IMG/VR virus record: IMGVR_UViG_3300034101_001322 | Coordinates: 1-64,000 of that record | DNA: 64,000 nt | Source of the DNA: a virus | Direction: 5' to 3' (one strand) | Part shown: positions 2,052 through 54,121 of the stretch, in pieces | How the letters are laid out: every line of letters starts with the position of its first letter | How positions within the stretch are numbered: position 1 is the stretch's first letter | The notes under the pieces: generated by a model | What the model was told of the DNA's origin: nothing | The model's input: only the letters and a program-made list of their open reading frames with translations | Databases searched by the model: none | Translations under genes and position numbers: made by a program

Positions 2052-2060
2052 TGATATAAT
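2052..2060 (+). promoter_or_regulatory. extended -10 promoter TGATATAAT for candidate sRNA
   Basis: consensus motif followed by a hairpin and T-tract with no ORF in between. Confidence 0.65.
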
Positions 2061-2066
2061 CTAAAC

Positions 2067-2127
2067 AGATTAGTCCCTAGGTTGCTCTCTACCCCACCCC
2101 ACTGCTCCTAGGGATTAATCCTTTTTT
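2067..2127 (+). ncRNA. candidate small RNA: 14-bp stem, 25-nt C-rich loop, U-tract
   Basis: GATTAGTCCCTAGG(2068-2081)/CCTAGGGATTAATC(2107-2120), loop TTGCTCTCTACCCCACCCCACTGCT, T6 at 2122-2127, own promoter. Confidence 0.55.
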
Positions 2128-2128
2128 A

Positions 2129-2137
2129 TGGTATAAT
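2129..2137 (+). promoter_or_regulatory. extended -10 promoter TGGTATAAT
   Basis: 8 nt upstream of ATG 2146, no SD. Confidence 0.7.
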
Positions 2138-5317: not shown

Positions 5318-6616
5318 ATGGGACTTAATACTTATGTGGCTTTATATACAACAACACTTGCATCTCCAGCAGCATCTATAGTATTTAACTCTATCAGCCA
5401 AAATTATACAGACCTTGTTTTAGTTTCTAGAATTATTGGTGGATCTGGTGGAAATGATTGTCTTGTAAGATTAAATTCTGATACTGGAACTAACTATTCG
5501 AATACAGTTTTATATGGATCTGGAAGTTCAAATGCACTCTCTACTAGAGGTGTAAATGTTACCTACCTTGCTGGAAACATTACTTCAATTGAAACAGGCG
5601 AAGTTAATAATATGGTTATGTCTTTTAATAATTACTCAAACACGGTCACACATAAAACTTGTTTAACTAGACATAACTCAACACATAGCGGAAAGTATGT
5701 AACTGCCAGCGCTGGTCTTTGGCGTAATACAAATGCGATTACATCGATTGAAATTAATACAAATAATAATGGTACTTGGGCTGCTGGTACTAGCATATCT
5801 TTATATGGAATAGTTGCTGCAGGAGCAAACCCAACTCCAAAAGCAACTGGTGGAGTTATTTCTACTGACTCTCTATATTACTATCACACCTTCCCCAGCA
5901 GTGGAACATTCACTCCATCACAAGCACTTACATGTGACTACTTTATAGTTGCTGGTGGCGGTGGTGCAGGAGCAACAGTAGGTGGAGGTTGGTCTGGTGG
6001 TGGTGGAGGTGCAGGTGGTTACAGAAGTTTTAATTCAGTTAGTTTTGCTAGCGGAACTACATATACAGCAACAATTGGTGCTGGAGGCAATGGTGGGTCT
6101 GGATCAGGTGGTACTGGTTCCAATGGTTCCACTACAAGTTTGATTGGTGGAGCAATATCTAGTTCATCATCTGGTGGTGGAGGTGGTGGTACTTCTAAAG
6201 AAAATGGTAACACTCAAACAAACGGAGCAGCAGGTGGTTCAGGTGGTGGTGCACCACAGAATACTGTAAATGTTAACGGTGGTGCTGGTAACTCTGGTGG
6301 CTATACCCCTGTAGAAGGCTACGCAGGATTTTCAAATACTACAGGAGGATTTACTGGAACTGGTCAAGGTGGTGGAGCAGGCGGTATAGGTATTGCTGGA
6401 ACTTACTTATTAGAATATCCATTTAATGGAGTAGTAGCCTTTGACGGAAATCGTTATGCCAATGGTGGTGGTGCTAGATGGCTTACTGCTGACGTTATGA
6501 CTGGAGATCAGGCAACAGGCAATGGTGGCTATAGTAAAAATGACGGGACTGGAACTAACTATACTGGTGGTAAAGGTGGATCTGGAACTGTTGTGATTAG
6601 ATACTTGAAGGCTTAA
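5318..6616 (+). CDS. glycine-rich adhesin-like virion protein
   Basis: SIxQxYTDL domain + YYYHTF.SSGTF + VAGGGG..GGSGTVVIRY module. Confidence 0.7.
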   Translation: MGLNTYVALYTTTLASPAASIVFNSISQNYTDLVLVSRIIGGSGGNDCLVRLNSDTGTNYSNTVLYGSGSSNALSTRGVNVTYLAGNITSIETGEVNNMVMSFNNYSNTVTHKTCLTRHNSTHSGKYVTASAGLWRNTNAITSIEINTNNNGTWAAGTSISLYGIVAAGANPTPKATGGVISTDSLYYYHTFPSSGTFTPSQALTCDYFIVAGGGGAGATVGGGWSGGGGGAGGYRSFNSVSFASGTTYTATIGAGGNGGSGSGGTGSNGSTTSLIGGAISSSSSGGGGGGTSKENGNTQTNGAAGGSGGGAPQNTVNVNGGAGNSGGYTPVEGYAGFSNTTGGFTGTGQGGGAGGIGIAGTYLLEYPFNGVVAFDGNRYANGGGARWLTADVMTGDQATGNGGYSKNDGTGTNYTGGKGGSGTVVIRYLKA

Positions 6617-6628
6617 AGGGAGATATAT

Positions 6629-7990
6629 ATGTCAGCAAATTATGTACTACTAGAAACTATAGAACTTACTACAAGTGCTGCATCTGTCACCTTTGATAAC
6701 ATACCTCAAACTGGATATACAGACTTAGTTTTAAAGTGTAGTGCAAGAACAACATATGCTTCTGCTTATGGAGACTCCTTTTATGTTTCTTTTAATGGTT
6801 CATCATCAAATATGTCACGCAGAAGAATGTATGGTTTAGGCGCTGGAACACCTGGATCAGATTCAGCATCAAATTCTTATGGAGGGTTTGGATCTGCTGC
6901 ATCTCAAACATCTAATGTTTTTGGAATTTCTGAGTTATATATACCAAACTATACTTCAGATAAATTAAAAACTTCATCTTTATATGCAGTTTCAGAAAAT
7001 AATGCTGCAGAAGCCCAGATAATCCTTAATGCAAATCTTTGGAGTAGCACTGCTGCTATCAATTCAATAACTTTAACTTCTGAAACATCTTCTAATTTTG
7101 TTCAATATAGTTCGTTTTCTCTTTATGGAGTGGCAGATTTAAATACAACTCCTACCACAGTTCCAAAGGCTAGTGGTGGAAATATTGTCACTAGCGATGG
7201 TACATATTGGTATCACACATTTTTGTCATCAGGATACTTTATTCCACAAGCCAATATCACCTGTGATTATTTAGTAGTTGCTGGTGGTGGCGCTGGAGGA
7301 GAAGGATATTCAACAAGAACAGGTGGCGGTGGTGCAGGTGGTTTACGATCAACTGTAGGTGCAACTGGTGGCGGTGGAACTCTTGAAACTCCTGTTCTTT
7401 TAAGTTCTGGAACAAGTTACGCAATTACAGTAGGCGCTGGGTCAGTCGGAGGAAATGGAAGCAATTCATCTATTGCAGGAACAGGATTAACAACTATCAC
7501 TTCATTAGGTGGTGGCGGTGGAACACAGTCTCCAGCCACTGCAAATAGTGGAGGCTCAGGAGGTGGTGCAGGTTGGAACCCAACAAACGGAATTGGAATT
7601 GGCGGTGCTGGAACTGCTGGACAAGGTTTTGCAGGTGGTAATTCATCAACAGGCGCATCATACGCTGCGGGTGGCGGTGGAGGAGCAGGTGCAGTTGGTC
7701 AAGCAGCACCTAATAATTCTACTGGTGGTGCAGGTGGCGCAGGAGTTTCTATTTCCGCTTTGGCTACTGCAACAGGAACAGGTGTGAGTAATTATTATGC
7801 AGGCGGCGGAGGCGGTGGCGGAAGCACAGCAGGAGCAGGCGGAGCAGGTGGTGGTGGTAACGGAAGTAGTGGAAGTATTGGAACTGCTGGTAGAGCAAAT
7901 ACAGGCGGTGGTGGTGGAGGACAACTTGGAGAAGGTTATTCCGCTAAAGGTGGTTCTGGTATTATTATAATTAGATATGCAATGGTATAA
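6629..7990 (+). CDS. glycine-rich adhesin-like virion protein
   Basis: NIPQTGYTDL domain + YWYHTF + YLVVAGGG..GGSGIIIIRY module. Confidence 0.7.
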   Translation: MSANYVLLETIELTTSAASVTFDNIPQTGYTDLVLKCSARTTYASAYGDSFYVSFNGSSSNMSRRRMYGLGAGTPGSDSASNSYGGFGSAASQTSNVFGISELYIPNYTSDKLKTSSLYAVSENNAAEAQIILNANLWSSTAAINSITLTSETSSNFVQYSSFSLYGVADLNTTPTTVPKASGGNIVTSDGTYWYHTFLSSGYFIPQANITCDYLVVAGGGAGGEGYSTRTGGGGAGGLRSTVGATGGGGTLETPVLLSSGTSYAITVGAGSVGGNGSNSSIAGTGLTTITSLGGGGGTQSPATANSGGSGGGAGWNPTNGIGIGGAGTAGQGFAGGNSSTGASYAAGGGGGAGAVGQAAPNNSTGGAGGAGVSISALATATGTGVSNYYAGGGGGGGSTAGAGGAGGGGNGSSGSIGTAGRANTGGGGGGQLGEGYSAKGGSGIIIIRYAMV

Positions 7991-8002
7991 AGGAGAATAT
8001 AA

Positions 8003-8338
8003 ATGTCACATTGGGCAGAAGTAGACGAAAACAACATAGTTCTTAGAGTGCTTGTTGGAAATAACAGTGAGTCAGACGAAGGCGAAGCCTTTATGAACTC
8101 ACTTGGCGGTACCTGGATAAAAACCAGTTATACCGATAGCATTAGAAAGAATTTTGCGGGAATTGGTTATTCATATGACCCATCTCGTGATGCATTCATT
8201 GCCCCCAAGCCATTTGAGTCTTGGGTACTGAATGAAGATACCTGTATATGGGAAGCACCAGTTGCATACCCAGAAGGTGGTATTATGTATACATGGAACG
8301 AAGAACTTGTCAATTGGGAGGAAATTGTAAATGACTGA
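8003..8338 (+). CDS. Trp/Pro-rich partner of glycine-rich protein (copy 1)
   Basis: W..TSY..RKNFAGIG..YD...DAFI.P.P..SW.LNE.T..WEAP; paralogue of 11900 and 14041. Confidence 0.7.
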   Translation: MSHWAEVDENNIVLRVLVGNNSESDEGEAFMNSLGGTWIKTSYTDSIRKNFAGIGYSYDPSRDAFIAPKPFESWVLNEDTCIWEAPVAYPEGGIMYTWNEELVNWEEIVND

Positions 8339-8564
8339 TGTACCTAAAAAATTGGTAGTAAACCTTGAGACTGGAATCCAGTCATACATCGATCTTACAC
8401 CAGAAGAAATTGAACAGCGTGAACTTGATGCTATTGCTTTTGCAACAGCACAGGCAGAGCGTGAAGCAGCAGAAGAAGCAGCACAGGCTGCTAAAGAGTC
8501 TGCAAATTCTAAGTTAACAGCACTAGGGTTAACTGCAGAAGAGATTGCTTCACTAACCAAGTAG
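8331..8564 (+). CDS. small helical protein, possible fibre assembly chaperone
   Basis: LTPEEI..Ala/Glu coiled coil..KLTALGLTAEEI. Confidence 0.55.
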   Translation: MTDVPKKLVVNLETGIQSYIDLTPEEIEQRELDAIAFATAQAEREAAEEAAQAAKESANSKLTALGLTAEEIASLTK

Positions 8565-8570
8565 CATTTT

Positions 8571-8590
8571 AGAATAAATCTGCTATAATA
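8571..8590 (+). promoter_or_regulatory. cassette-boundary promoter AGAATAAATCTGCTATAATA
   Basis: TGCTATAAT at 8581-8589; 19/20 identical to 12244-12263. Confidence 0.75.
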
Positions 8591-8607
8591 AGTAACGAGG
8601 AGAAATA

Positions 8608-9177
8608 ATGCCAACTTTTAACACCACAGATCCGAAGCCAGGGTATGTATATGATGCAGCAGTCGATACATGGTTCCCTTTAGCAGGTATAGCAACACAG
8701 ACTCTTGATGGTTTGACGGATGTCATTATTACTTCCGCTTCAACAAACCAGGTTCTTGCATATAATGGAACTAACTGGGTAAACTCTTCTGAGGCTGGAA
8801 ACGTAGATTTATCTAGTGCTCAAACCTTAACAAATAAAACTTTAACTGATCCAAAAATTAATCTAAGTATTAATGAACAAACAGGAACAACATATACTCT
8901 TGTATTAGCAGATAATGGTAAGTTCATTACATCTTCTAATACCTCGGCAATTACAGTTACTATACCGCCCAGCACATCAGTTGCTTATGCAACAGGTGCA
9001 CAGGTCAATATAATTCAGAAAGGAGCGGGACAAGTAACAATCTCACAAGGTTCAGGAGTAACAATTCGTTCAACAGGCGCTACAGCGACTGCTCCTAAAC
9101 TTCGTGCACAGTATTCATCTGCAACTTGTATTTATGAAGGTTCAGATATTTGGTATGTAGTAGGAGACATTGCATAA
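8608..9177 (+). CDS. tail fibre/adaptor protein
   Basis: LDGLTDV, QTLTNKTLT, QTGTTYTLVLAD..IQKGAGQVT..WYVVGDIA fibre motifs. Confidence 0.65.
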   Translation: MPTFNTTDPKPGYVYDAAVDTWFPLAGIATQTLDGLTDVIITSASTNQVLAYNGTNWVNSSEAGNVDLSSAQTLTNKTLTDPKINLSINEQTGTTYTLVLADNGKFITSSNTSAITVTIPPSTSVAYATGAQVNIIQKGAGQVTISQGSGVTIRSTGATATAPKLRAQYSSATCIYEGSDIWYVVGDIA

Positions 9178-11705
9178 TGCCTATTATTGGAACTACTGCA
9201 TCTGCTATAACTGGTAATTTAGGTTTACTTGTTAATTACCTTGTAGTTGCAGGCGGAGGTGGCGGAGCATCTGAATCTGTTGGAGGCACACAAAATGTTG
9301 AAGGTGGTGGAGGTGGAGCAGGAGGTTTACGCTCCACAGTTACAGCAACTGGCGGTGGTGGTTCTCTAGAGTCACCACTTACTTTGGCATTTGACACTTC
9401 TTATACTGTTACAGTTGGTGCAGGTGGTGCAGGAGGTGCAAGTGGTGGTGCTAATTCAGGATCAGTTGGCTCTAATTCAGTTTTTTCAACAATAACTTCT
9501 AATGGCGGCGGTTTTGGTGGTGCTCGTGCAATCGGTGGTAATGGAGGCTCAGGTGGTGGTGGTGGTACAGCAGGCAATTACGCTGGAGGTACTGGTACAT
9601 CAAACCAAGGTTACGCAGGCGGTACTGGATTTTGGGTAAATGAATCTAACGGCGGAGGCGGAGGCGGAGGCGGTGCTGGCGCTGTTGGTGGTAACGGATC
9701 AAGCGGTACAGGCGGTAACGGTGGTGCTGGTGTAGCAACTTCTATTTCAGGTTCTTCTGTAACTTATGCAGGTGGTGGTGGTGGCGGTGGTTATCCAACC
9801 GCAGCAGGTACAGGAGGCTCAGGTGGTGGCGGTGCAGGTGGTTATGTAAGCAATAACAATGCAGCAGCAGGAACAGCAGGAACAGCAAATCTTGGTGCAG
9901 GTGGCGGTGGTGGTGCAACTCATCGCACTGGTAACGGAGCATCAGGTGGCAACGGCGGATCAGGAATTGTTATTGCTAGTTATTCAGGTACTACACAAAA
10001 AGCCTTAGGCGGTGCCATTACATTTTCTGGTGGAAATACAATTCACACTTTTACTTCATCAGGTACATTCCAAACTGGAACAACATTTGGTAGCGCAACA
10101 GGTGGCGTTGTCTATACAGACGGTAATTATTGGTATCACACATTCTATTCATCAGGCACATTTACACCTTTACAATCTTTAACTGCTGATATTCTTGTAG
10201 TTGGTGGTGGAGGTGGAGGTGGAAATGGTTATTACGCAGGTGGCGCAGGCGCTGGCGGTATACTTTCTTTTACAGATCAAAGCATAACAACCGCTTCTGC
10301 AGTAACTGTTGGTGCTGGTGGTGCTGGTGCAACCGTTGGCAACGATTCTCAATTTGCTTCATTAACTCTTGTTAAGGGTGGCGGTAGAGGTGGAAGTCAA
10401 GAAACTGCTGGTGGAAATGGTGGCTCTGGAGGTGGTTCTGGTGGAGTTGGCACTAATGGTGCTCGTTTACCAGGTGGAACTGCAACGGCAGGTCAAGGTA
10501 ACGACGGTGGTACAGGTTTTAACAGATTTGAAAGCATTGGTGCAGGTGGCGGCGGTGGAGGTGCTGGTGCTGTAGGATCAAATGCTAGTTCATCAACTGG
10601 TGGTGCTGGTGGTATTGGAACATCAAGTTTTTCAACTTATGGTGCAGTAACAGGAACTGGTCAAAACATAGATGGAACTCGTTGGTTTGCAGGCGGTGGC
10701 GGTGGATCGGGTGCAGGCTCTGCTGGCGTAGGAGGTTCTGGTGGCGGTGGCGCTGGTTTAAGTGGCTTCCCAATTATAACTGGAAATCCTGGTTTAGCAA
10801 CTACTGGTGGAGGCGGTGGCGCTGCAAATAATGGCGAAACCCCTGTGCAACAAGGTGGAACTGGTGGTAGCGGTGTTGTGATTGTTCGTTACTCAGCAGC
10901 AAAAGCGGTAGGTGGAACAATTACAAATGATGGAACATATTATTATCACACATTTAGATCATCAGGAACTTTTACTCCTAAACAATCATTAAGCGTTGAT
11001 TACTTAGTGGTTGCAGGCGGAGGCGGAGGTAATGCTGGTGGCGGTGGCGCAGGTGGATATCGCACAGCAACATCACAATCTGTTACTGCAACTAACTATA
11101 CTGTTACAGTTGGCGCTGGCGCTACTTGGGGCGCAAAAGGTTCGAACAGTAGTTTCTCTTCTTTTGCTGCTACAGGTGGTGGCTCTGGTGGAAATGACAC
11201 TGGTGTAAATAGTGGTGGTTCTGGCGGTGGTGGAGGACGAGACGGTGGCTCAACTCCTGGTTCTGGAAACCAGGGTGGTTATTCACCAATAGAAGGTCGT
11301 AATGGTGCTGGTAACAATAATACTGGTTGGTGTGGTGGTGGTGGCGGTGGCGGTATTGGAGCCGCTGGATCACCTGGATCAGGTAATGGAGCACCAAGTG
11401 GTGAAGTAGGCGGTAATGGCGGTATTGGTTCATTTACATCAATTTCAGGTGGTGCAACCACTGGTGTAGGGCAGTTATCGTCAGGTAACTATTATTTTGC
11501 AGGTGGTGGTGGCGGTGCCGTTGGTTCATCTAGTGGAACCGCATCATCAGGTGGTATAGGCGGTGGAGGTCGTGGTGGTAATCAAAGTAGCATTACTGCA
11601 GACAATGGAACCGCTAATACTGGAGGCGGCGGAGGCGGTGGAGCATCAGGCTCTAACTCAGGCTCAGGCGGTTCTGGTGTAGTCGTAGTAAGATATGCAA
11701 TCTAA
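9177..11705 (+). CDS. large glycine-rich adhesin-like protein with three tandem Gly-rich modules
   Basis: three (Y/I)LVV(A/G)GGGG..GGSG(I/V)V units separated by HTF.SSGTF linkers; start at TAATG 9177. Confidence 0.75.
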   Translation: MPIIGTTASAITGNLGLLVNYLVVAGGGGGASESVGGTQNVEGGGGGAGGLRSTVTATGGGGSLESPLTLAFDTSYTVTVGAGGAGGASGGANSGSVGSNSVFSTITSNGGGFGGARAIGGNGGSGGGGGTAGNYAGGTGTSNQGYAGGTGFWVNESNGGGGGGGGAGAVGGNGSSGTGGNGGAGVATSISGSSVTYAGGGGGGGYPTAAGTGGSGGGGAGGYVSNNNAAAGTAGTANLGAGGGGGATHRTGNGASGGNGGSGIVIASYSGTTQKALGGAITFSGGNTIHTFTSSGTFQTGTTFGSATGGVVYTDGNYWYHTFYSSGTFTPLQSLTADILVVGGGGGGGNGYYAGGAGAGGILSFTDQSITTASAVTVGAGGAGATVGNDSQFASLTLVKGGGRGGSQETAGGNGGSGGGSGGVGTNGARLPGGTATAGQGNDGGTGFNRFESIGAGGGGGGAGAVGSNASSSTGGAGGIGTSSFSTYGAVTGTGQNIDGTRWFAGGGGGSGAGSAGVGGSGGGGAGLSGFPIITGNPGLATTGGGGGAANNGETPVQQGGTGGSGVVIVRYSAAKAVGGTITNDGTYYYHTFRSSGTFTPKQSLSVDYLVVAGGGGGNAGGGGAGGYRTATSQSVTATNYTVTVGAGATWGAKGSNSSFSSFAATGGGSGGNDTGVNSGGSGGGGGRDGGSTPGSGNQGGYSPIEGRNGAGNNNTGWCGGGGGGGIGAAGSPGSGNGAPSGEVGGNGGIGSFTSISGGATTGVGQLSSGNYYFAGGGGGAVGSSSGTASSGGIGGGGRGGNQSSITADNGTANTGGGGGGGASGSNSGSGGSGVVVVRYAI

Positions 11706-11716
11706 GGGGGAATAAA

Positions 11717-11899
11717 ATGAAAAAAGAAAAAGATTTAACTCAGTGCTTTAGTTTTGAAGTCAAGATGTTAGTACATGTAATTGCTGACAATGAAACAACA
11801 GCAAAAACACAACTTGATGAAAAAGGTGGTATTGTAACTAAGCGTGATGTAAAGTTACTTAATACAATAACTCTCTACGGAGAAGATAAGGATAAATAA
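11717..11899 (+). CDS. hypothetical protein
   Basis: SD AAGGGGG, tightly packed ORF. Confidence 0.6.
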   Translation: MKKEKDLTQCFSFEVKMLVHVIADNETTAKTQLDEKGGIVTKRDVKLLNTITLYGEDKDK

Positions 11900-12241
11900 A
11901 TGGCACACTTTGCAAAAGTAGTAGATGGCATTGTTGAGCAAGTAATTGTTGCCGACACCAAAGAATGGTGTGAATCTAACCTTGGTGGAACCTGGGTTCA
12001 GACTTCATACAATACACATGGCAACGTCCATACATTAGGTGGCACACCTATGCATAAGAACTATGCAGGTATTGGATACACATGGGATGGCACAGGGTTT
12101 GCAGCCCCTCAGCCATACGCTTCATGGACACTTAATGATGAGTCCTATCTTTGGGAAGCACCAACACCTATGCCAACAGACGGCGGTATATATCAATGGG
12201 TAGAAGACGATCTTAACTGGCAATTAATAGAAGGAGAGTAA
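11900..12241 (+). CDS. Trp/Pro-rich partner of glycine-rich protein (copy 2)
   Basis: MAHFA..WVQTSYN..KNYAGIG..PQPYASWTLN. Confidence 0.7.
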   Translation: MAHFAKVVDGIVEQVIVADTKEWCESNLGGTWVQTSYNTHGNVHTLGGTPMHKNYAGIGYTWDGTGFAAPQPYASWTLNDESYLWEAPTPMPTDGGIYQWVEDDLNWQLIEGE

Positions 12242-12243
12242 GC

Positions 12244-12263
12244 AGAATAATTCTGCTATAATA
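12244..12263 (+). promoter_or_regulatory. cassette-boundary promoter AGAATAATTCTGCTATAATA, leaderless
   Basis: TGCTATAAT 12254-12262, 6 nt before ATG 12269. Confidence 0.75.
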
Positions 12264-12268
12264 GCACT

Positions 12269-13132
12269 ATGGCAATCACATTCGATAATGACGGCAAACC
12301 AGCCTATATGTTTAAGCAGGGTGCTTCGTCATCCGATGGTGTTTGGTACGCAGTAGGAGCAAAGGTTGATACCTCTGCTGCTTATGAGTTTACTGGAGCC
12401 AATAGTTTTACCAATACCGTTTTATTTGACGATGCTGTTACAGCAACGAATGGTTGGAATAACTTCCTAAACCCTGCTGCTAGAGATGCAGCACTTGCTA
12501 CTCCAGTGCGTGGAACAATTTGTTTTGTTCGACAAGATGCAGGTGGATCAGCATTAAACCAGATTCAATCATATGATGGTTCTGCTTGGGTTGCAAGCGG
12601 TGACGTTTTTGGAGTTACAGCAGGAACAGGTATTTCTGGTGGCGGTACATCAGGAACAGTAACAGTATCAGTAGATACAGCCGTAGTAGCAACAACAAGC
12701 AACACTCTTACAATGAGTGGAAAAACACTAACATCGCCAGTTTTGGTATCACCAGAAGAGCGTACAAGTGTTTCAACATCTGCTCCAACTTCTACAACAA
12801 ACATTGATGCAGTAACTGCGGGTACACATTTATTTACAGCAAATACAACATCAAACGTAACATTAAATATTCGTGGTGACGGATCTACCACACTTAACAC
12901 ACTAGTTGCTACAGGAGACTCAATATCTATTGCAGTTCTTCTTACAAATGGTGGAACAGCATACTACCCATCAACAATTACAATTGATGGAACTACAGTC
13001 ACTCCAAAGTGGCAAGGTGGTACTGCTCCAAGTTCAGGAAACACATCAAGTATTGATGCATATGTATTTAACATTATTAAGACAGCATCTGCAACATATA
13101 CGGTTTTGGCAAGTCAAACAAAGTTTGCATAA
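12269..13132 (+). CDS. tail fibre/adaptor protein
   Basis: C-terminus (TSAPTSTTN..RGDGSTTLN..WQGGTAPSSGNT..QTKFA) paralogous to 3613. Confidence 0.65.
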   Translation: MAITFDNDGKPAYMFKQGASSSDGVWYAVGAKVDTSAAYEFTGANSFTNTVLFDDAVTATNGWNNFLNPAARDAALATPVRGTICFVRQDAGGSALNQIQSYDGSAWVASGDVFGVTAGTGISGGGTSGTVTVSVDTAVVATTSNTLTMSGKTLTSPVLVSPEERTSVSTSAPTSTTNIDAVTAGTHLFTANTTSNVTLNIRGDGSTTLNTLVATGDSISIAVLLTNGGTAYYPSTITIDGTTVTPKWQGGTAPSSGNTSSIDAYVFNIIKTASATYTVLASQTKFA

Positions 13133-13144
13133 GGGGTAAAGTAA

Positions 13145-14041
13145 ATGCCATTTTTAGGAACTCGTGGTGGTGGTTCGGTAATAGGCTATGGTAGGTTTGG
13201 TGGATCTTCTAGACCTTCAACAGTAGAGGTTCTTGTAATTGCTGGTGGAGGAAGTGGTGGAGCAAATAATACAGGTGGCGGTGGTGGTGCAGGTGGTTAT
13301 CGTTACAACTCTGCACTAGCAACTCCTTCTGGTTCATTTACAGTAACTGTTGGTGCTGGCGGGGCAAGCAGTTCTACTAGAGGTGGTAACTCAACATTTA
13401 GCACCTATGCAGCAACTGGTGGTGGTAGAGCCTATGGTGACTCTAGCGGTGGTGGAAGTTCAGGTGGCTCAGGTGGTGGTGCTGGTGGTAACTACTCAGG
13501 TGGATCTCCAAATCCAGACCAAGCGGCTCAAGCAGGTAACGCTGGAGGGTATACTCCAGTAGAAGGATATGCTGGTGGAAATGCAAAGGGAAATGGTCCC
13601 TATCCTTGTGGTGGTGGCGGTGGTTCTAGTGCGGTAGGAAATAACTGGGGCGGAAATACTGGTGGCTCAGGCGGAGCAGGAACTGCTTCTTCAATTACAG
13701 GTACTTCGGTAACAAGAGCAGGCGGTGGTGGAGGCTCTGGATATTCACCTGAAGGTGGCTCTGGCGGTGGCGGTGGTTCAGGCGGAGGCGGAAGCGCTGG
13801 TGGCGCTGGCGGTAACGCAGGATCTACAAACACAGGTAGCGGTGGCGGTGGGTCAAGCGGTGGAAACGCTGGTGGCTTGCCAGGTGCTGGTGGTTCAGGT
13901 CTTGTTGTTCTTGCTTACCCTAACTCTTTCCCAGAACTAACAAGTGTTGGCGCAGGACTTACTTATTCTTTATCTAATACTTCAAGGTCAGGGTATCGTG
14001 TTTATCAGTTCACACAAGGAACAGGATCGGTGACTTTCTAA
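13145..14041 (+). CDS. glycine-rich adhesin-like protein
   Basis: VLVIAGGGSGG..GGSGLVVLAYP..VYQFT module. Confidence 0.7.
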   Translation: MPFLGTRGGGSVIGYGRFGGSSRPSTVEVLVIAGGGSGGANNTGGGGGAGGYRYNSALATPSGSFTVTVGAGGASSSTRGGNSTFSTYAATGGGRAYGDSSGGGSSGGSGGGAGGNYSGGSPNPDQAAQAGNAGGYTPVEGYAGGNAKGNGPYPCGGGGGSSAVGNNWGGNTGGSGGAGTASSITGTSVTRAGGGGGSGYSPEGGSGGGGGSGGGGSAGGAGGNAGSTNTGSGGGGSSGGNAGGLPGAGGSGLVVLAYPNSFPELTSVGAGLTYSLSNTSRSGYRVYQFTQGTGSVTF

Positions 14042-31245: not shown

Positions 31246-31261
31246 GATTTAACCAATCACT

Positions 31262-31302
31262 AATAGGGAGGGTAGCGTAAAAACTACCCTCCTTATTCTT
31301 TT
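31262..31302 (+). terminator. intrinsic terminator after capsid gene
   Basis: AATAGGGAGGGTAG/CTACCCTCCTTATT stem followed by CTTTT. Confidence 0.85.
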
Positions 31303-31334
31303 CTGGTATAATTACAAATGAGCACTGGAGAATT

Positions 31335-36266: not shown

Positions 36267-39200
36267 ATGGCTGATGTAAATGCTAATATTGGCGTACATA
36301 TTGATACGTCAGCGGCACTGGCAGAACTTAAAAACTTACAGCGTCAATTAGCGACATTTCATTCATCTGTAGCAAAGAATAGTGCAGCCTCAGCAGCAGC
36401 ACAAAAGAATCTACAGACAAACCTTTTAAATTCTATCAATGCCACTGGCAAATTTTCTGCCCAAATGGGGTTGGTAAGAACTTCAACGGAGTCGTTTACT
36501 CACGCACTGGAGAAAAATAAACTCTCTATGCGTGAGTATTTCCGTTATGCAGGCGGATCTACTAGAACATTCGGAAAGTTATTTAAGCAAGAGTTTGACA
36601 CAATTGGCAAGGTAGCCGAAGAGCGTGTCAAGAAGATGCAGACCCAATATATCAAGATGGGTCGTGACGCATCTGGTGCAATGAAGGCTATGGCAATTAC
36701 GCCAAGATCATTGGACATGAATGACTATGCTACTAAGACAGCCTTAGCAGCACAAAAGCAAGCACTATTTAATCAGTTAGTTAGACAAGGTTCTACTAAC
36801 CTTCTAAACTTTGGTAAGAACACTCAGTGGGCTGGTCGTCAGTTGATGGTTGGCTTTACTGTACCTCTTGCATATTTTGGTACCGCAGCAGCAAAAACAT
36901 TTATGGACCTTGAAACACAGGCTATTAAGTTTAGACGTGTTTATGGCGATATGTTTACAACAACAGATGAAACAACTAAGGCTCTTAGTGATATTGAAAA
37001 GATAGCAAAAGAATTTACAAAATATGGTGTTGCTGCTGTTAAAACCATGGAACTTGCATCTCAGGCTGCTGCGATGGGTAAAACAGGTGCAGAACTTACA
37101 GCCCAGGTTGTAGAAGCAAATAGACTTGCAGTCCTTGGCGGGGTAGAGCAAACAGAAGCACTAGAGACAACTATCTCAGTAACAAATGCATTTGGTATTG
37201 CAGCAGAAGACTTAGCAAATAAAATTAACTTTCTTAACGCAGTTGAAAACCAGACAGTTACAAGTATTGAAGATCTAACAATTGCTATTCCAAAGGCTGG
37301 ACCAGTTGTAAAGCAACTTGGCGGTACAGTAGAAGATCTAGCCTTCTTCCTTACAGCAATGAAGGAAGGCGGAATCAATGCATCAGAAGGTGCTAACGCA
37401 CTCAAGTCTGGTCTTGCATCTTTAATTAACCCAACTAAAAAAGCATCAGCAATGCTCCAAGACTATGGCATTAACATTAAGGCAATCGTTGAAGGTAATC
37501 AGGGAAATGTTAGACAGACTGTAATTGATTTTTCTAGAGCACTAGATACACTAGATCCACTAAACCGTGCTCGTGCAATTGAACAACTGTTTGGTAAGTT
37601 CCAGTTCTCACGTTTGTCAACACTATTCCAGAACGTAACAAAAGATGGAACACAGGCAAGCAAGGTTTTAGGGCTTGCTGGAGCATCTATTGAACAACTT
37701 GCAATCTTGTCAGAGCGAGAATTAAAAACTGTAGAAGACTCAGTTGGAGTTCAGTTTAAGTCTGCAGTAGAAGAATTAAAGTTAGCAATTGCTCCAATAG
37801 GAAAAACATTCTTAGAAGCAGTAACCCCAATTGTTAAGGTTATTGGAAATCTTCTTGAAAAGTTTAACGGTCTTGGAGATGGCACAAAGAAGTTTATAGT
37901 TATTGCATCAACTCTTGTTGGTATTATTGGACCTACACTATTGATGACATTTGGTCTTGTTGCTAACGGTGTAGCAAACATTATCAAGATGTTCCTAGCA
38001 ATGCGTATTGGATTCTTAAAACTTGGTGGAAACTCAAAGGTTCTTGCACAGCAAACAGGTTATTTAAATACTGAACAGATGGAAGCAGCAACTGTTGCAG
38101 CATCTCTAAATCAAGCACACACAAGATTAACTCAATCATTTACAGCAGAAACATCAGCAGTTAGATTATTGCGTCAAGCATATATTGATGCTACCGTAGC
38201 AGCAGCAAACTTTGCTAGAGCAAATCCAGGCATGATGATGCCAGGCAAGGGTGGTGCCCCAAAGAAGGGAGCAGCACCAAAGAAGTTTGCAACAGGAACA
38301 ACTGGACTACCAGGACCAAAGGGAGCGGGAGATATTATTCCTATCCTTGGTGCACCTGGAGAAGCAATTATTCCAGCAAACGTTGCACAAGATGATAGAT
38401 TTAAACCAATTATTGATGCAATGGTTAATGGAAATCTACAAGGTTTTGAAGAAGGAACAGTAAATTTAGGTGGTAAAACATTTACAACACGAAGCCAGTC
38501 TACTGCTCTAAATCTTCAGAACAAGATTTCTGAATTAATTTCTAAGGGATATTCAGAAGATAGAATTATCAAAGCATTAGAAACAAATGTTCAGCGTGGT
38601 CGTCCAATGACTGCATCACAACTTGAAAGAAGATTGTCAATTGGTCGTGGTGCTTCAACTGGATCATCTGCACCTTCATCTATTAGATCTCTTGCCAAGC
38701 AGTCTCAATCAGGATTTATGCAAGAAACCAATGCAATTAAGGAAGCACTTAAGCGCCAAGGAGTAGTATTAACACCAGCACAAGAAAAGAATTTGTTTAA
38801 TGTTCAGGCTTCTCATATTGAAGAAGTTAGAAATGCTGGAGTAAAAGAGTGGAAAACTAACAACCTTGTTGCAGATCTTGGATATGTTAATAATTATCTT
38901 AATACTGTAAAGGGTAAACTTGGTCAGACTCTTATGGGAATGTCTGATGAACAACTTAAGTCTATGGGCATTGATAGAAATGAACTTAAAAAACTTCAGT
39001 CTGGAACACACCCAACAAATGCAAGAGCAGCAGAAACACTACGTGCAGTTGCTAGATACGATGCATCGATTAATCCAAACTCATATCAAGCAAGGGCTGT
39101 TCTGGCTGGTTTAGAATATCGCTCAAAGAGCAATTTCTATTCTCAACCAATGAAGACTTTGGCTGACATGGTTGTATCAAAGGGCAAGAAGACTAAGAGC

Positions 39201-42200
39201 GGTGTTGTTGATGGTCAAACAGGAAGAGCAAAGTCTCCAGCAGTAAGTGTATCTGGTGGAGGTGTTGGAGACCGTCGTCAAGTTGCAGTTGGCAAGGGCG
39301 AAACAATTCTTAATAAGAAAACAACCACTGCTATTCGTGGTGGAAGAGCAGCGTTTATTCCAGGACTTGGAAGACTAAGAATTGCTGGAGCAGAAGATGG
39401 TATTCCTACTGGTCAAAAGACAGGAAGCACTACTGTTGGAGCGGTATCACAATCAGCACAACTATCAAGAGCACAGTTAATTGCTGCAACAGAAAGAATA
39501 AGTTTAAAGGAAGCAAAGCGTCGCATTGCTGCAGAGGGTAGACTAGCGAATGCAATGGATGATTCTACAAAGGCTCAAATTACAACAAAAGAAAAACTAT
39601 CAGAGTTTAGTAAAAAAGCAGGAATGGGCATAGGCGCAGTATCTGGTCTTACAATAGCAGCATCTTTTGCTGGTGGTAAAGTTGGAGAGATGGCTCAAGC
39701 CATAATGCCATTTGTATTTGGTCTTCAAGGAATTATAACTTTACTTCCATTACTTGCAAACCCTTGGGTTGCAGCCATTGCTGCTATTGCAGCAGTTGGT
39801 GGAGTAATGTGGAAGATGGCTAAAGATGTTGAAAAGGCTAGACAGGCTGGAGTTGATCTTGCTAAGTCTATGAACATGACATCTGAAAAATTACAAAACC
39901 TTTCAGTTCTTACGGCAACAGTTAGTGCTACTGAAGAAGCAGATAGAAAACGACAAAACATTCTTACTGGCGAAGATGCTGTTCAAAGAAAGTTTGGTCA
40001 AAATATTCTTGGTAGTGAATTTGGCAAGGGTCTTATGGCTGACATTGAGAAGCAAGCAAAATCTGGTCAGGGTATTCAAGAAATTGGAAGAAATATTTCT
40101 AATAGTCTTGCCTATGCAATCGTACAAGGTGTAATAACAACCGATCAAGCAAAAAGCATATCTTCTGCACTTGGTGAAGAATTAAAGAGTTATGAGATTC
40201 CAGCAATCATTAGTGGAAGATTGACAACTTTACTTGGACCAAATGGTGAAAATCTAGCAACAGACCCGCTAAAGATTACTCTTGCAATTCAAGAAGAGTC
40301 TATGCAAAGACAGGCTGATTTCTTTAAGACTGCTTTAGAAGGCTCCATGAGCACGGTTACATTTACAAATGTTGGACAGGTTATTGGTGGAGGAATTACC
40401 GCTGCTGTTGGAGGACTTATGGCAGCAGCAGGAGTTCCAGCACTTGCAGCAGGTGGAGTTCCAGGTGCTGGTATGTTGGCTGGTGGAACTGCTTTAGCAG
40501 GTGTAGGTGCAGCAAATGTAAGGGCTGGTCTATCAGATCAAAATCAAAGAAGAGAAGTAAATGCTAATCTTGGTGCAGCAGCACTTCAACTTGGACTAGA
40601 GCAAGTAACAATGAATAATGGTTTAGTTGATTCACTTAACAAGCAATATGACATTAAAGTTAAAATGGCTAAAACAGATGCAGAAATTGAAGAGATTGAA
40701 AAGAAAAGAACTGCAGCACTTGATACACTTAATGCAAAAAATGCAGAAGCGCTAAATCTTCTTATTGCACAAAAAGATAATTTTGGTGCTGATGTATTTA
40801 CAAAGGGAATTAATGCAGCAATAGATACACTTTACAAAGATGGACCAATGAAGGTTTTTGCTGATGAAGCAAAGAAAGAACTAGAAGGAATTAAAGACGC
40901 AGACTTTAAAGCAATGCTTCAGGTTCAATTTGCTAGCGGATCTATTGATCCAATAACAGTTACAAAACTTGCTAATAATGAAGAATTACAAAGTCAGTTT
41001 ACAATAATGGTTGAAAGCCAAGGTAGTGAGCAGGCAAACCTAGTAATGCAACTACTTATGAAGGCGGGAACAAATGAAACCAACCTTCCAATCTTTATGG
41101 ACATTATAAATAAAGATAAAAAGAATTTTGATAAAAATATGAAGGCAATAGCAATTCTTGGTAATATGCAACAAAAGTATGGCATATCCGTTAACATGAA
41201 TGTTAATGGTCAAAAGAAAATGGAAGATGTCGTTAAGATTACTGAAGATCTTAAGGGTATTTCTCAAGAAGAAATAACCAAAGAAGGATTGCTTGATCTT
41301 AAAGTAAAGGATCCTGCAACTTATAATGCACTTATGGCTAACTGGAATACTTTGGTTGGAACATCAAGTACAATTAATAAAACTGTAATTATTGACTTTG
41401 TTGCTTCACAAGATGAAAATACTGTAAATGCATATATGGCTGCTATGGGCATTACTGCTCCAAAGGGTAGACTGGGTGCAACACTTCGTAAAGGACTTGA
41501 AGAAAAAGCAGCGGCATGGAAAATTGGAAGACAAGGTAGAGTTACTCCCAACCCTATCCCTGGAGGAACTGGTGGCGGTGGAGATACAGGATCTAAGTCA
41601 AGAGATACAACACTTGATGATCTTTTGAACAGACTAAAGATGACAAGAAAAGCATCTATAAATGCTGCAGGTGGACTTGATGAATTGATGAAGCGCACAA
41701 AGGGTAAGGGTTTGACAAACTTTGGCGGAGTAATAAATAACCTCATGAACCAGTCTCCTGGCAGAATAAATAGAGAGTTCCTTGATTTTATTTCACAAAT
41801 GGATGATAAAACACGTAAAACATATCTAACTATTAAAGATGGAAAGGCTGTTCTTACAGCGCAAGGCAAGGCTCTTAAAGAAGGATTTGATGAAGCAGCA
41901 ATTGGTGATTATCTAACAACACAAACAAAGAGTCTTGATACTACAAAGGCTCAGGAAAGTGCTTTTAACAAGTTAAGGGCTGCTGGAGTAGGCACAGCAC
42001 AAGCAATTGAAATGGTTTCAGATGAACTGCTTGCAGTAGCCATCAATGGGAAAGACATTGATTCTAGAGAATTAAAAGTCATGGCAGACACTGCTAAGGC
42101 AGCAGCAGATGCTGCAAAAGACTTACAACAAAATTTAAACATGCAAACACGTCAAGGAAGGTTTGCAATCTTTAAGGAGTCTTTCAATGAAGCCATGGAT

Positions 42201-43721
42201 TATTTTGATGCACAGGAAGAACTTGTAAGACAACAAAGAGAAGCAACACCAGAATTTAAGGCTATAAATGCTGAGATAGATGCTCAGACCGCTGCAATTG
42301 ATGCAGCAGAAAAGGTAATCACTGATTATCAAAATAAGATTGGCGACTTACAGTATGACCTTGAAAACAACACTGTCTATGGAAGTCGAGTAATTGATAA
42401 TCTTAATGCACAGATTGACACACTAGGTAGAACTGCTGAAATTGATTTTGATAGACCACTTGCAGCACTAAGCGAAGAGTCTGCAATTATCTCAAACACA
42501 CTTGGACTTATTGATAAAGCAGAAGAAGAGATTAATAAAAAGTATGATGCTCAAGAGCAAGCATTATCTAAGATTTCTCAACTTAACTCAGAGATTGCAG
42601 CACAAGAAAAACAAAGACTTACACTTGCAGATGCACTAAGCCAAGGAGATATTTCTGCAGCAGCAGCAGCCGCTCAGGAAATGAGAGCAACTGCAGCAGA
42701 GGCTGCAACAAGAAGATCATCTGGAACCCTTGCCGCAGCAAGAGAGTCAGAGTTGGGTACCGTAACTGTAAATGGAATGACAAGAATTCAAATTGAAGAG
42801 CGTCAGTTCCAAATAGGACAGCAAACATTTGCTTTAGAACAACAACGTAAGGTAATTGAACAACAAATTTTATCTATTCAAGATCAAATTTATGCAAAAG
42901 AACTTTTGCGTGAACCAATTAACAGACAGATTAGAGACTATCAGTTTGAAATTGAAAAAACTCAGCGTAACTCACTTGAGCCTGCACAGCAGGCTCTTGA
43001 AAAAGCAACATTTGCAAAAGAGCAGTATCAAAAACAAACAGAATCAATTATTAAAACTTTTGAATATTTAGGTAAATCAAAAGACGAATGGATTACGATA
43101 AATGTAGAAGCAACTGCTGTTGAAAAAAGTGCAGATGCTATTGAAAAGTCAACTGCTAAATCTGCTACAAATACTGCTGCAATTCTGGAATCTTGGGAAA
43201 AGTTAAAAGATAAAACAATTACACTTACAGAAAAGATTAATAGAATAGTTACAACAACTAATATAGTTACTACTGTTTATGCTCCTGGCAGTACCCCACC
43301 ACCTGGTGGTCTTACTACAAAAATGTACGGTGGAGTAATTAAGAAGATGGCAGTTGGTGGCTTTGTTCCAGGAATTGGAATGACAGATAAGGTTCCTACG
43401 CTGTTAACACCAGGTGAGTTTGTTGTTAATAAGGCTGCTACAAAGCAGTTTGGTCCACTTCTGTCAGATATTAATAATTCTAAATTCCCATCAATGGTTA
43501 ATGAATTAACTCCCGCAGTCTATTCATCTAATAATTCATCTATATTTACACCAAATATTATTTCAAATAATGCATCTCTGTCAGATAACTCCAGCACCAT
43601 GTATAATTATAATATTGGAATAACTGTTCCACAAACAAATGCAAGTTCTGACGATATTGCTAGATCAGTAATCAGTCAGATTAGACATGTTGACGCACAA
43701 AGAATTAGAGGACAAAGGTAA
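36267..43721 (+). CDS. tail tape measure protein
   Basis: 2484 aa helical Ala-rich, TP901-like core, TM-like segments, PGEFVVNK motifs. Confidence 0.9.
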   Translation: MADVNANIGVHIDTSAALAELKNLQRQLATFHSSVAKNSAASAAAQKNLQTNLLNSINATGKFSAQMGLVRTSTESFTHALEKNKLSMREYFRYAGGSTRTFGKLFKQEFDTIGKVAEERVKKMQTQYIKMGRDASGAMKAMAITPRSLDMNDYATKTALAAQKQALFNQLVRQGSTNLLNFGKNTQWAGRQLMVGFTVPLAYFGTAAAKTFMDLETQAIKFRRVYGDMFTTTDETTKALSDIEKIAKEFTKYGVAAVKTMELASQAAAMGKTGAELTAQVVEANRLAVLGGVEQTEALETTISVTNAFGIAAEDLANKINFLNAVENQTVTSIEDLTIAIPKAGPVVKQLGGTVEDLAFFLTAMKEGGINASEGANALKSGLASLINPTKKASAMLQDYGINIKAIVEGNQGNVRQTVIDFSRALDTLDPLNRARAIEQLFGKFQFSRLSTLFQNVTKDGTQASKVLGLAGASIEQLAILSERELKTVEDSVGVQFKSAVEELKLAIAPIGKTFLEAVTPIVKVIGNLLEKFNGLGDGTKKFIVIASTLVGIIGPTLLMTFGLVANGVANIIKMFLAMRIGFLKLGGNSKVLAQQTGYLNTEQMEAATVAASLNQAHTRLTQSFTAETSAVRLLRQAYIDATVAAANFARANPGMMMPGKGGAPKKGAAPKKFATGTTGLPGPKGAGDIIPILGAPGEAIIPANVAQDDRFKPIIDAMVNGNLQGFEEGTVNLGGKTFTTRSQSTALNLQNKISELISKGYSEDRIIKALETNVQRGRPMTASQLERRLSIGRGASTGSSAPSSIRSLAKQSQSGFMQETNAIKEALKRQGVVLTPAQEKNLFNVQASHIEEVRNAGVKEWKTNNLVADLGYVNNYLNTVKGKLGQTLMGMSDEQLKSMGIDRNELKKLQSGTHPTNARAAETLRAVARYDASINPNSYQARAVLAGLEYRSKSNFYSQPMKTLADMVVSKGKKTKSGVVDGQTGRAKSPAVSVSGGGVGDRRQVAVGKGETILNKKTTTAIRGGRAAFIPGLGRLRIAGAEDGIPTGQKTGSTTVGAVSQSAQLSRAQLIAATERISLKEAKRRIAAEGRLANAMDDSTKAQITTKEKLSEFSKKAGMGIGAVSGLTIAASFAGGKVGEMAQAIMPFVFGLQGIITLLPLLANPWVAAIAAIAAVGGVMWKMAKDVEKARQAGVDLAKSMNMTSEKLQNLSVLTATVSATEEADRKRQNILTGEDAVQRKFGQNILGSEFGKGLMADIEKQAKSGQGIQEIGRNISNSLAYAIVQGVITTDQAKSISSALGEELKSYEIPAIISGRLTTLLGPNGENLATDPLKITLAIQEESMQRQADFFKTALEGSMSTVTFTNVGQVIGGGITAAVGGLMAAAGVPALAAGGVPGAGMLAGGTALAGVGAANVRAGLSDQNQRREVNANLGAAALQLGLEQVTMNNGLVDSLNKQYDIKVKMAKTDAEIEEIEKKRTAALDTLNAKNAEALNLLIAQKDNFGADVFTKGINAAIDTLYKDGPMKVFADEAKKELEGIKDADFKAMLQVQFASGSIDPITVTKLANNEELQSQFTIMVESQGSEQANLVMQLLMKAGTNETNLPIFMDIINKDKKNFDKNMKAIAILGNMQQKYGISVNMNVNGQKKMEDVVKITEDLKGISQEEITKEGLLDLKVKDPATYNALMANWNTLVGTSSTINKTVIIDFVASQDENTVNAYMAAMGITAPKGRLGATLRKGLEEKAAAWKIGRQGRVTPNPIPGGTGGGGDTGSKSRDTTLDDLLNRLKMTRKASINAAGGLDELMKRTKGKGLTNFGGVINNLMNQSPGRINREFLDFISQMDDKTRKTYLTIKDGKAVLTAQGKALKEGFDEAAIGDYLTTQTKSLDTTKAQESAFNKLRAAGVGTAQAIEMVSDELLAVAINGKDIDSRELKVMADTAKAAADAAKDLQQNLNMQTRQGRFAIFKESFNEAMDYFDAQEELVRQQREATPEFKAINAEIDAQTAAIDAAEKVITDYQNKIGDLQYDLENNTVYGSRVIDNLNAQIDTLGRTAEIDFDRPLAALSEESAIISNTLGLIDKAEEEINKKYDAQEQALSKISQLNSEIAAQEKQRLTLADALSQGDISAAAAAAQEMRATAAEAATRRSSGTLAAARESELGTVTVNGMTRIQIEERQFQIGQQTFALEQQRKVIEQQILSIQDQIYAKELLREPINRQIRDYQFEIEKTQRNSLEPAQQALEKATFAKEQYQKQTESIIKTFEYLGKSKDEWITINVEATAVEKSADAIEKSTAKSATNTAAILESWEKLKDKTITLTEKINRIVTTTNIVTTVYAPGSTPPPGGLTTKMYGGVIKKMAVGGFVPGIGMTDKVPTLLTPGEFVVNKAATKQFGPLLSDINNSKFPSMVNELTPAVYSSNNSSIFTPNIISNNASLSDNSSTMYNYNIGITVPQTNASSDDIARSVISQIRHVDAQRIRGQR

Positions 43722-51648: not shown

Positions 51649-51663
51649 CATTAAGGGTGGGAA

Positions 51664-51855
51664 ATGGTTTTTTGCAAAAAATGCAAAGGTCGTATGCTTG
51701 TTGATAGACAATATAGCACAACTGAGCATATTGAGATATTCTGTATACTGTGTGGTGCAAGAACATTCTTTCACCCACCATCAGAGAGTGAGCAAGGTAG
51801 ATGGATACTGCTAAGGGAAAGATCCAGAGCGAACAATACAATAACGAGTCTGTAA
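51664..51855 (+). CDS. zinc-ribbon protein
   Basis: CKKCKG..CILCG. Confidence 0.7.
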   Translation: MVFCKKCKGRMLVDRQYSTTEHIEIFCILCGARTFFHPPSESEQGRWILLRERSRANNTITSL

Positions 51856-52343: not shown

Positions 52344-52362
52344 ACTATGAAATGGGTGGGTA

Positions 52363-52596
52363 ATGGAAAATAGCAATTACGTAGTAACAAACGAACCAAC
52401 AAAGATTAATGTAACACTAGGATATACGCTTAACCTTGGTAACTTTCAATCACTTAGACTCGATCTAGGCGTTGTAGATAGCAAGCGTGATGGAGAAACC
52501 ACAGCAGACGCTTTTGAGCGTGTCTATAAGTTTGTAGAAGACAAACTAACAGAAAAGATTCAAGAAGCACAATCAGAGGCTGCTGAAAAAGAATAA
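52363..52596 (+). CDS. hypothetical protein
   Basis: GYTLNLGNFQSLRLD motif common in phage replication regions. Confidence 0.7.
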   Translation: MENSNYVVTNEPTKINVTLGYTLNLGNFQSLRLDLGVVDSKRDGETTADAFERVYKFVEDKLTEKIQEAQSEAAEKE

Positions 52597-52904
52597 TGGC
52601 TGAACGCAAAGACCGAATGGCTTTGCTTAGTAGGTACAGTAAGTTCCATACAGCAAAGTATGAGCAAAAGCCATCTTTAAATTTAAATGTTGAGCAGTGG
52701 GCTTCCGATGCACTCATAGAGTCATACGGAATCAGCAAGTGCTATGACATATTGGAATATTACTTTAGCGTAGCACAAGATCCAAGTTGGAACTACTTTG
52801 CATACAATGCAGAAAAAATTCTAAATGGTAAAATTGAAGTAGATAAAGATAATGAAGAACGAATTGAGCGCAGACGATTAGCAAGGAAGTGGCTAAGTGA
52901 ATAA
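52596..52904 (+). CDS. hypothetical protein, possible replication initiator/helicase loader
   Basis: overlaps start of helicase. Confidence 0.55.
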   Translation: MAERKDRMALLSRYSKFHTAKYEQKPSLNLNVEQWASDALIESYGISKCYDILEYYFSVAQDPSWNYFAYNAEKILNGKIEVDKDNEERIERRRLARKWLSE

Positions 52905-54120: not shown

Positions 54121-54121
54121 A

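Follow-up and report, generated by a model that had tools for sequence, protein, structure and literature searches.

At the head of the tail-fibre cluster of a lake phage, a perfect extended -10 promoter points at a hairpin with a 25-nt loop instead of at a gene, and a second promoter follows the hairpin almost at once. This raises the question of whether the hairpin ends or regulates transcription on the spot, or is itself the product, a small RNA whose C-rich loop has a partner elsewhere. The reading best supported, to which we assign a probability of roughly 0.55, is that of a phage-internal RNA that would pair with a ribosome-binding site (RBS) at the head of the helicase-primase block, about 50 kb from the RNA gene. 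The structure of the hairpin, its conservation, the promoter and terminator signals around it and the co-variation between its loop and that RBS were computed here.

The window, i.e., the whole stretch of DNA that was analysed, covers the opening 64 kb of an IMG/VR record 94.5 kb long (about 87% complete; ~38% GC). It encodes a portal, a prohead protease, a capsid protein, a class II ribonucleotide reductase, a DnaB-like helicase, a primase and a DnaE-type polymerase. Among the tail genes, an ORF of 2484 aa (36267-43721) probably specifies a tape-measure protein. The genome contains a WhiB gene that scores above the Pfam cut-off, its capsid protein is closest to those of large Streptomyces phages (about 43% identity), and the 71-aa gene just upstream of the hairpin (1610-1825) has 73% DNA identity to ‘Ca. 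Planktophila’ phage E7 (PMC10202952). Together, these three lines of evidence indicate an actinobacterial host, which is probably a low-GC freshwater actinobacterium. The preliminary description was thus right in its actinobacterial frame, whereas the mycobacterial setting that it implied was wrong for this lake phage of ~38% GC. All of the 24 public runs that hold this DNA are DNA runs, and where a habitat is given it is mostly lake water. The product of the 71-aa gene appears to be a single-pass membrane protein with the motif ELKPNSGSSLKD, and the gene is syntenic before the RNA gene. Its relatedness to a gene of the ‘Ca. Planktophila’ phages E7 and F5 is a clue to the host. In these phages a different gene follows the 71-aa homologue, and phage E7 contains no such hairpin, though it shares the upstream membrane-protein gene.

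The elements of the cassette follow each other closely (Table 1). The stem comprises 14 bp, including one G·U pair, and starts seven bases past P1, while a single C separates its 3' arm from the T6 run. P2 begins two bases past that run, and the ATG of its gene follows 8 nt after the hexamer; P2 belongs to the conserved cassette and lies outside the RNA itself. An inner 2-bp GC clamp (2084-2085 with 2104-2105) reduces the open loop to 18 nt. The predicted folding energy of the hairpin is -23.5 kcal/mol (z = -5.6 against shuffles), and none of 200 shuffled sequences folded as well. The nearest plus-strand ORF upstream ends at 1825, the predicted transcript contains no ORF, and no ORF starts within 60 nt behind P1. 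Every element that the preliminary description had listed here, from the -10 box, stem and loop to the U6 tract and the second promoter, agreed exactly in both coordinates and sequence. As sequence signals, a promoter and a terminator of its own would define a short non-coding transcript, as expected of a small RNA gene.

Table 1. Positions in the window of the small RNA cassette and of its candidate partners.
Feature	Position	Strand	Basis or remark
P1, extended -10 promoter of the small RNA (TGATATAAT)	2052..2060	+	Phage gene-promoter consensus class
Hairpin 5' arm, GATTAGTCCCTAGG	2068..2081	+	Fold, stem covariation, homologues fold alike
C-rich loop, proposed seed, 25 nt, UUGCUCUCUACCCCACCCCACUGCU	2082..2106	+	G-free in 56 distinct homologue loops
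Hairpin 3' arm, CCTAGGGATTAATC	2107..2120	+	Fold and covariation
U6 tract	2122..2127	+	With the stem, an intrinsic-terminator-like 3' end
P2, extended -10 promoter TGGTATAAT of leaderless gene 2146-2550	2129..2137	+	Present in 57/57 distinct loci
Other candidate site, RBS of 63-aa zinc-ribbon ORF 51664-51855	51655..51661	+	Conservation as a target not supported
Proposed target, G-rich RBS (GGGTGGG) and start codon of 77-aa gene	52354..52365	+	Loop complementarity in 10/10 genomes
77-aa gene, phrog_5189 (no assigned function)	52363..52596	+	ORF; PHROG assignment

The promoter itself is of a kind that recurs throughout this phage. Boxes of the form TGNTATAAT occur at 19 sites in the window against 4.3 expected, 16 of them on the plus strand, and judged by this distribution they are a real promoter class of the phage. 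Genome-wide, they fall into two groups, situated either 17-30 nt before a start codon with a Shine-Dalgarno (SD) sequence in between, or just 6-9 nt before the start. The latter predict leaderless mRNAs (box/start at 842/857, 1594/1610, 2129/2146, 12254/12269, 17048/17064 and 51187/51205). Further leaderless examples between positions 225 and 51205 of the window are 26731/26747, 28729/28747 and 35156/35174; the predicted leaderless mRNAs sit at operon heads and have no SD, and genes internal to operons have GGAG-type SDs. P1 is a perfect member of this class, yet unlike most of its perfect intergenic boxes it has no trailing ORF. Across 57 distinct related loci, the -10 hexamer always lies 5-8 nt before the first base of the stem (57/57), where it reads as a perfect TATAAT in 48 and is TG-extended in 52; a T-rich tail follows the stem in 49, and P2 follows the tail in every one. 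With initiation about 7 nt after the hexamer, the 5' end of the RNA would fall on the first bases of the stem (about 2066-2068).

Conservation of the hairpin was assessed in the relatives of this phage. The gene downstream of the hairpin has relatives in at least 570 IMG/VR stretches, and each of the 57 distinct related loci amenable to scoring carries the cassette. Covariance models built from 21 hairpins gave 46-84 bits in relatives and recovered the hairpin in 57 of 60 further loci. It is single-copy in its own genome, and each related locus has one match, on the plus strand, where the score reaches 82-84 bits against 21 bits for the minus strand. Homologues folded individually, with no alignment, adopt a common shape. 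Ten of the 14 stem pairs have changed on both sides in a set of 23 sequences, as have nine of 16 in a second set of 38 distinct sequences; in both sets, the number of double-change cells and the covariation score exceeded those of all 500 shuffles, and shifting the partners by one to three columns makes the pairing collapse. A one-base bulge in many sequences leaves some misalignment among the outer pairs, which lowers the covariation counts and does not raise them. G·U pairs make up 37 of 381, and the plus-strand fold is the more stable in 20 of 23 sequences. Given that such pairs are confined to the plus strand and that this strand folds better, the hairpin appears to be read as RNA from the plus strand and not to be a DNA palindrome.

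The locus invariably follows the 71-aa membrane-protein gene and precedes the P2-driven cluster, and the order of promoter, hairpin, tail and promoter is kept in distant syntenic relatives (G002, G171, G172 and G176), whose stems and loops differ. A search against Rfam returned no family anywhere in the window at gathering thresholds, nor at the locus at E ≤ 10. The preliminary description had proposed an independent small RNA gene and had suggested looking for stem covariation and loop conservation in related phages. Both were found, the loops of distant relatives falling into other classes, and with promoter, hairpin, U tract and loop conserved and the stem covarying, the comparison supports the proposal. 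By this evidence, the hairpin appears to be a real, conserved and previously uncatalogued small RNA gene of an abundant group of lake actinophages.

The loop provides the most direct clue to its function. Across 56 distinct homologues, the open loop bases (12-19 per loop) comprise 600 C, 175 A, 130 U and not a single G, with a conserved core of ACCCC(C)ACCCCACUGC. That the loop stays free of G in all of these while the stems diverge indicates that it is under selection. Two of its segments, UACCCCACC and CCCACCC, are complementary to the proposed target RBS. The preliminary description had pointed to GGGTGGG just before two start codons, and the motif is indeed present at both 51655 and 52354. 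Considered within the window alone, a target assignment of this kind is at chance level, since GGGTGGG shows no enrichment (4 sites, with 3.25 expected), 7-nt sites are common and a duplex scan performed no better with the loop than with shuffles. Checking the motif for co-conservation in other genomes, as had been suggested, separated the two sites.

At the first site (51653-51666), the G-rich RBS is kept only in the two closest genomes, G000 (the genome of this phage) and G001. The homologous start region has just 0-3 nt of complementarity in G165-G167 despite a near-identical loop, and the gene is absent from G002; site 51655 was rejected on these grounds.

At the second site (RBS 52353-52365), complementarity to the loop is preserved and changes class along with it. 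Ten genomes hold both the hairpin and the 77-aa gene, both elements being read from their own DNA, and in all ten the loop and the start of the 77-aa gene share at least 7 nt of complementarity, in three sequence classes that switch together. In class I (G000, G001, G179 and G165-G167), the loop (C)UACCCC(C)ACCCCAC faces an RBS (G)GGUGGG(G)UA just before the AUG, with 7-10 nt of complementarity through loop UACCCCACC(C) and RBS (G)GGUGGGGUA. Class II (G171 and G172) combines the loop UAUACCC with the RBS GGGUAUA in a perfect 7-nt match, and class III (G002 and G176) combines (U)CAUACCC with GGGUAUG(A) in a perfect match of 7-8 nt. A core of UACCC:GGGUA is common to all three, and classes II and III are distinguished by a C:G to U:A exchange at its edge. 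The longest perfect match between loop and RBS is 7-10 nt within a class and mostly 4-6 nt across classes. In G001, the match extends to a perfect 10 nt, and only one other site in that genome is equally long; of the class I matches, that in the phage's own genome is the poorest, at only 7 nt (CCCACCC:GGGUGGG) and with one G less than G001 has.

Measured by duplex energy, no other start region equals that of the 77-aa gene in seven of the ten genomes (58-170 predicted starts each), and those that do at least as well number two in G172, three of 134 in G002 and ten of 163 in G171, so that the support from class II is mediocre. By longest match, 0-8 other start regions tie with it or beat it. 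The target region is predicted to be moderately open in the mRNA, with an unpaired probability of about 0.4-0.65. The weight of this co-variation is limited by the small number of events on which it rests, there being only about three independent classes of loop and RBS, and by the low complexity of pairing a run of C with a run of G, which is easily achieved by chance. Complementarity to the loop over 7 nt or more occurs at 65 sites in the phage's own 94.5-kb genome, where six other start regions reach 7 nt, and 25-100 such sites are present per genome among the five genomes listed. Moreover, the RBS in the window would pair with the loops of classes II and III over 7-8 nt, no worse than with its own loop. 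Within these limits, the proposed seed is conserved and its complementarity to the target is kept or co-varies. Ten further relatives, fragmentary and without the replication block, add no pairs of loop and RBS. Eight long contigs carry the 77-aa gene and have no hairpin detected by the RNA model; G176 is among them, and its divergent hairpin was located via the neighbouring gene.

The 77-aa gene heads a series of overlapping genes, which encode a 102-aa protein (52596-52904), the DnaB-like helicase (52897-54120; Pfam domain DnaB_C) and the primase (54074-55042; Toprim and zinc-ribbon domains). Stop and start are joined in UAAUG at 52594-52598, the GTG start of the helicase lies in an overlap at 52897-52904, and the primase ORF overlaps the end of the helicase. 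Owing to these overlaps at 52596, at 52897-52904 and between helicase and primase, a block at the 52363 start could spread down the chain.

From sequence, we infer that the RNA is made, where it ends, that it pairs, and that its effect is repressive rather than activating. Initiated from P1 at the foot of the stem (about 2066-2068), transcription would run as far as the U tract (about 2127) and yield an RNA of about 55-60 nt that is hardly more than one hairpin. The stem would protect the 5' end and terminate transcription, and the open C-rich loop would act as the seed, pairing with the G-rich SD and start region of the 77-aa gene at 52363. Such pairing would most likely mask the RBS and reduce translation of the 77-aa gene and, through translational coupling, probably that of the helicase-primase block as well. 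Were the RNA produced with or after the structural genes, it could act as a late brake on translation of the replication genes, although this timing is a guess. Repression is presumed as the usual outcome of pairing at an RBS, by analogy with the mycobacterial 6C sRNA, which represses panD and dnaB in this manner (PMC6486639); activation is also possible. In this model the unusual trait is economy, in that one hairpin would serve as 5' cap structure, as display for the seed and as terminator.

Of the other explanations, the one that fares best, though we consider it unlikely, is a trans-acting small RNA with its main targets elsewhere, either in G-rich leaders of the host (a mimic of 6C) or in other phage genes, so that the match to the 77-aa gene would be secondary. 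The CCCCACUGC word in the 3' half of the class I loop is its most conserved part, and the pairing with the 77-aa gene does not make full use of it. As the word is not needed at that RBS, its conservation is left unexplained and there may be another partner, be it phage, host or protein. The word is complementary to GCAGUGGGG, a universal stretch of 16S rRNA; this match was set aside, being only 9 nt long, with CACAGC, CAUUGC or CUCUGC replacing the word in some relatives and the distant relative G002 being without it. Beyond the window, the 5' part of the loop has a complement in the RBS (77692-77699) of a 62-aa ORF (77702-77890). This recurs in four genomes, over 8 nt in each of G000 and G001, five in G165 and six in G166, making the ORF a possible second target. 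An 11-nt perfect complement of the loop (AGCAGTGGGGT) is present at 72391-72401 of G000, also beyond the window, in codons 4-7 of a predicted exported-protein gene; 10 nt of it are kept in G001 only, and it was not found in G165-G167. This gene starts GTG AAA AAA ATA, resembling a signal peptide. Many targets would also be in keeping with 6C, which reaches a large number of them through its C-rich loops (PMC6486639). Against this, the other phage sites are not kept across the loop classes, whereas that of the 77-aa gene is kept in ten of ten genomes.

A genome-wide duplex scan with the loop gave its best matches in glycine-repeat (GGTGGTGG...) codons of the tail-fibre genes, and these were dropped as no better than those of shuffled loops. 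The tail-fibre genes (window 5900-14000) contain long GGT/GGC glycine-repeat stretches that dominate searches for G-rich partners of the loop.

A hairpin that is mainly an intrinsic terminator or insulator, stopping transcription from the upstream lysis-type genes and from P1 ahead of the separately promoted tail-fibre cluster and having no function in trans, appears rather unlikely to us. As in ordinary intrinsic terminators, a G+C-rich stem is followed immediately by a U tract; the position between the 71-aa gene and the P2-driven cluster is constant; and the 243-nt gap shows no other terminator. The loop, however, is 25 nt long (18 nt open) and conserved in sequence, where such terminators usually have a short, nonconserved loop of about 3-8 nt, and a scan with a terminator consensus allowing loops of 3-8 nt does not list the hairpin. 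Other terminators of this phage do have ordinary small loops (e.g., 31247-31312, with a loop of 8 nt). A terminator would need neither a conserved G-free loop of 12-19 nt nor a consensus promoter at a set distance of 5-8 nt upstream in all 57 loci, and the change of loop class along with a distant RBS would be left unexplained.

The proposed anti-RBS RNA might also double as a stand-in for host 6C, timing translation of the helicase and primase while binding G-rich host leaders such as that of dnaB and so shutting down host replication and growth in the very abundant lake actinobacteria that are infected, all by means of one hairpin with its terminator loop as the seed, but we regard this dual role as quite improbable.

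Still less credit is due to a cis-acting leader, in which P1 would be the tail-fibre promoter and the hairpin would attenuate transcription, its loop being bound by an antiterminator protein or RNA. In lambdoid late control (lambda pR'-tR' with Q, nut/put), a promoter is followed directly by a terminator and then by the late structural genes. The layout here matches this, and the conserved loop could be a binding site. No candidate for the antiterminator was identified, however, and the leader would leave the co-variation of loop and RBS unexplained; moreover, readthrough from P1 is not needed, given that in all loci P2 follows the terminator and drives a leaderless mRNA. A DNA-level element (a protein-binding palindrome, an origin or a packaging signal) is very improbable, for although the hairpin is the longest inverted repeat of the 64-kb window and extends at 74% identity over both -10 boxes, its G·U pairs would turn into A-C mismatches on the opposite strand and make a weak pairing as DNA, its U tract and promoter are strand-specific, and its conserved loop is not palindromic.

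Small RNAs with C-rich loops are known from other bacteria. In Staphylococcus aureus, sRNAs with a UCCC motif (the hairpins of RNAIII, RsaA/RsaE) pair through such loops with SD regions and block initiation; these belong to a different phylum, are chromosomal, larger and composed of several hairpins, and are unrelated in sequence to the phage RNA. The actinobacterial 6C sRNA (B11, RF01066) pairs in mycobacteria through its C-rich loops with G-rich RBSs, including that of dnaB, in a chaperone-free manner and on many targets (PMC6486639). The phage RNA resembles it in its actinobacterial setting, in an exposed, pyrimidine-rich loop with runs of C (UCCUCCCCCCCU in loop L3 of 6C), unpaired and free of G over the 56 distinct homologues, and in a proposed pairing with G-rich ribosome-binding regions that would need no Hfq. 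Furthermore, where 6C targets dnaB, the proposed target of the phage RNA heads a block that contains a DnaB helicase. Unlike 6C, it is phage-encoded, its seed loop is that of the terminator hairpin itself, and its predicted length of about 55-60 nt compares with 75 positions in the Rfam model. Where 6C has two adjacent C-rich-loop hairpins, there is a single hairpin here and in all 56 distinct homologues. The 6C model has no match in the window at its gathering score (47 bits) and none in 1800-2300 at E ≤ 10, so the Infernal search against Rfam that had been suggested turned up nothing for 6C even at this lenient threshold. The label ‘6C-like’ given in the preliminary description therefore survives as a working analogy based on the G-free, C-rich loop, and fails as a statement of homology. 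A further comparison is offered by the lambda sRNA LPR1/PreS, which base-pairs at host dnaN and enhances its translation, as verified by experiment in E. coli (10.1101/2024.10.31.621285). Both are phage-encoded, and the RNA proposed here would likewise base-pair where translation of a replication gene begins. In contrast to LPR1/PreS, the phage RNA has an operon of its own phage as the proposed target and repression as the presumed effect, and LPR1/PreS works in E. coli, where pairing of sRNAs typically uses chaperones such as Hfq.

A literature search found no C-rich-loop RNA and no base-pairing small RNA described for actinophages, and to our knowledge phage-encoded base-pairing small RNAs have been little studied outside the phages of E. 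coli. Our reading of the hairpin is that of a new candidate anti-RBS small RNA, 6C-like but not homologous to 6C. The phage group carrying it is very common in lake metagenomes (hundreds of contigs), and the bacteria that it probably infects rank among the most abundant in freshwater. Should this interpretation be correct, it would establish a minimal design for a regulatory RNA, consisting of a promoter, one hairpin and a U tail; it would provide a concrete pair of RNA and target with natural compensatory variants; and it would parallel the link between 6C and dnaB in mycobacteria, here applied to the phage's own replication genes.

Several minor observations concern the surroundings of these elements and their relatives. 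Contigs L062-L069, which come from metagenome-assembled genomes (MAGs), encode a ribonucleotide reductase 81-93% identical to that of the phage group; only phage contigs are involved, and the MAGs belong to unrelated phyla (labelled Chitinophagaceae, Flavobacterium, Bifidobacterium, Gammaproteobacteria, Luteolibacter and others). As most likely binning errors, these labels are uninformative about the host. The RNA covariance model had no match in four of those MAGs, nor did a search for 6C yield one in 151 genomes from the same class as one MAG. Upstream of P1, many relatives (L004, L011, L016, L022, L025 and L040) have a palindrome, TTATAAC-N5-GTTATAA, which is not enriched within the window and may be an operator. 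The window contains a degenerate version at about 1940-1975, TTATAACAATTAGATAAC, and the gap upstream of P1 in relatives holds the further conserved words GTATACAC and TAAAACGGACATTGTAA. In G001 (L150; G1r 53173-53190), the proposed target RBS provides an additional AUG upstream and in frame (AUG GGU GGG GUA AUG), and the equivalent frame in the window stops at once (AUG GGU GGG UAA). Finally, a second CCCCACCCC occurs at 78-117 of the window within GGGGGTACCCCCACCCCCTTTCT, which resembles a small G5/C5 hairpin with a T-rich tail.
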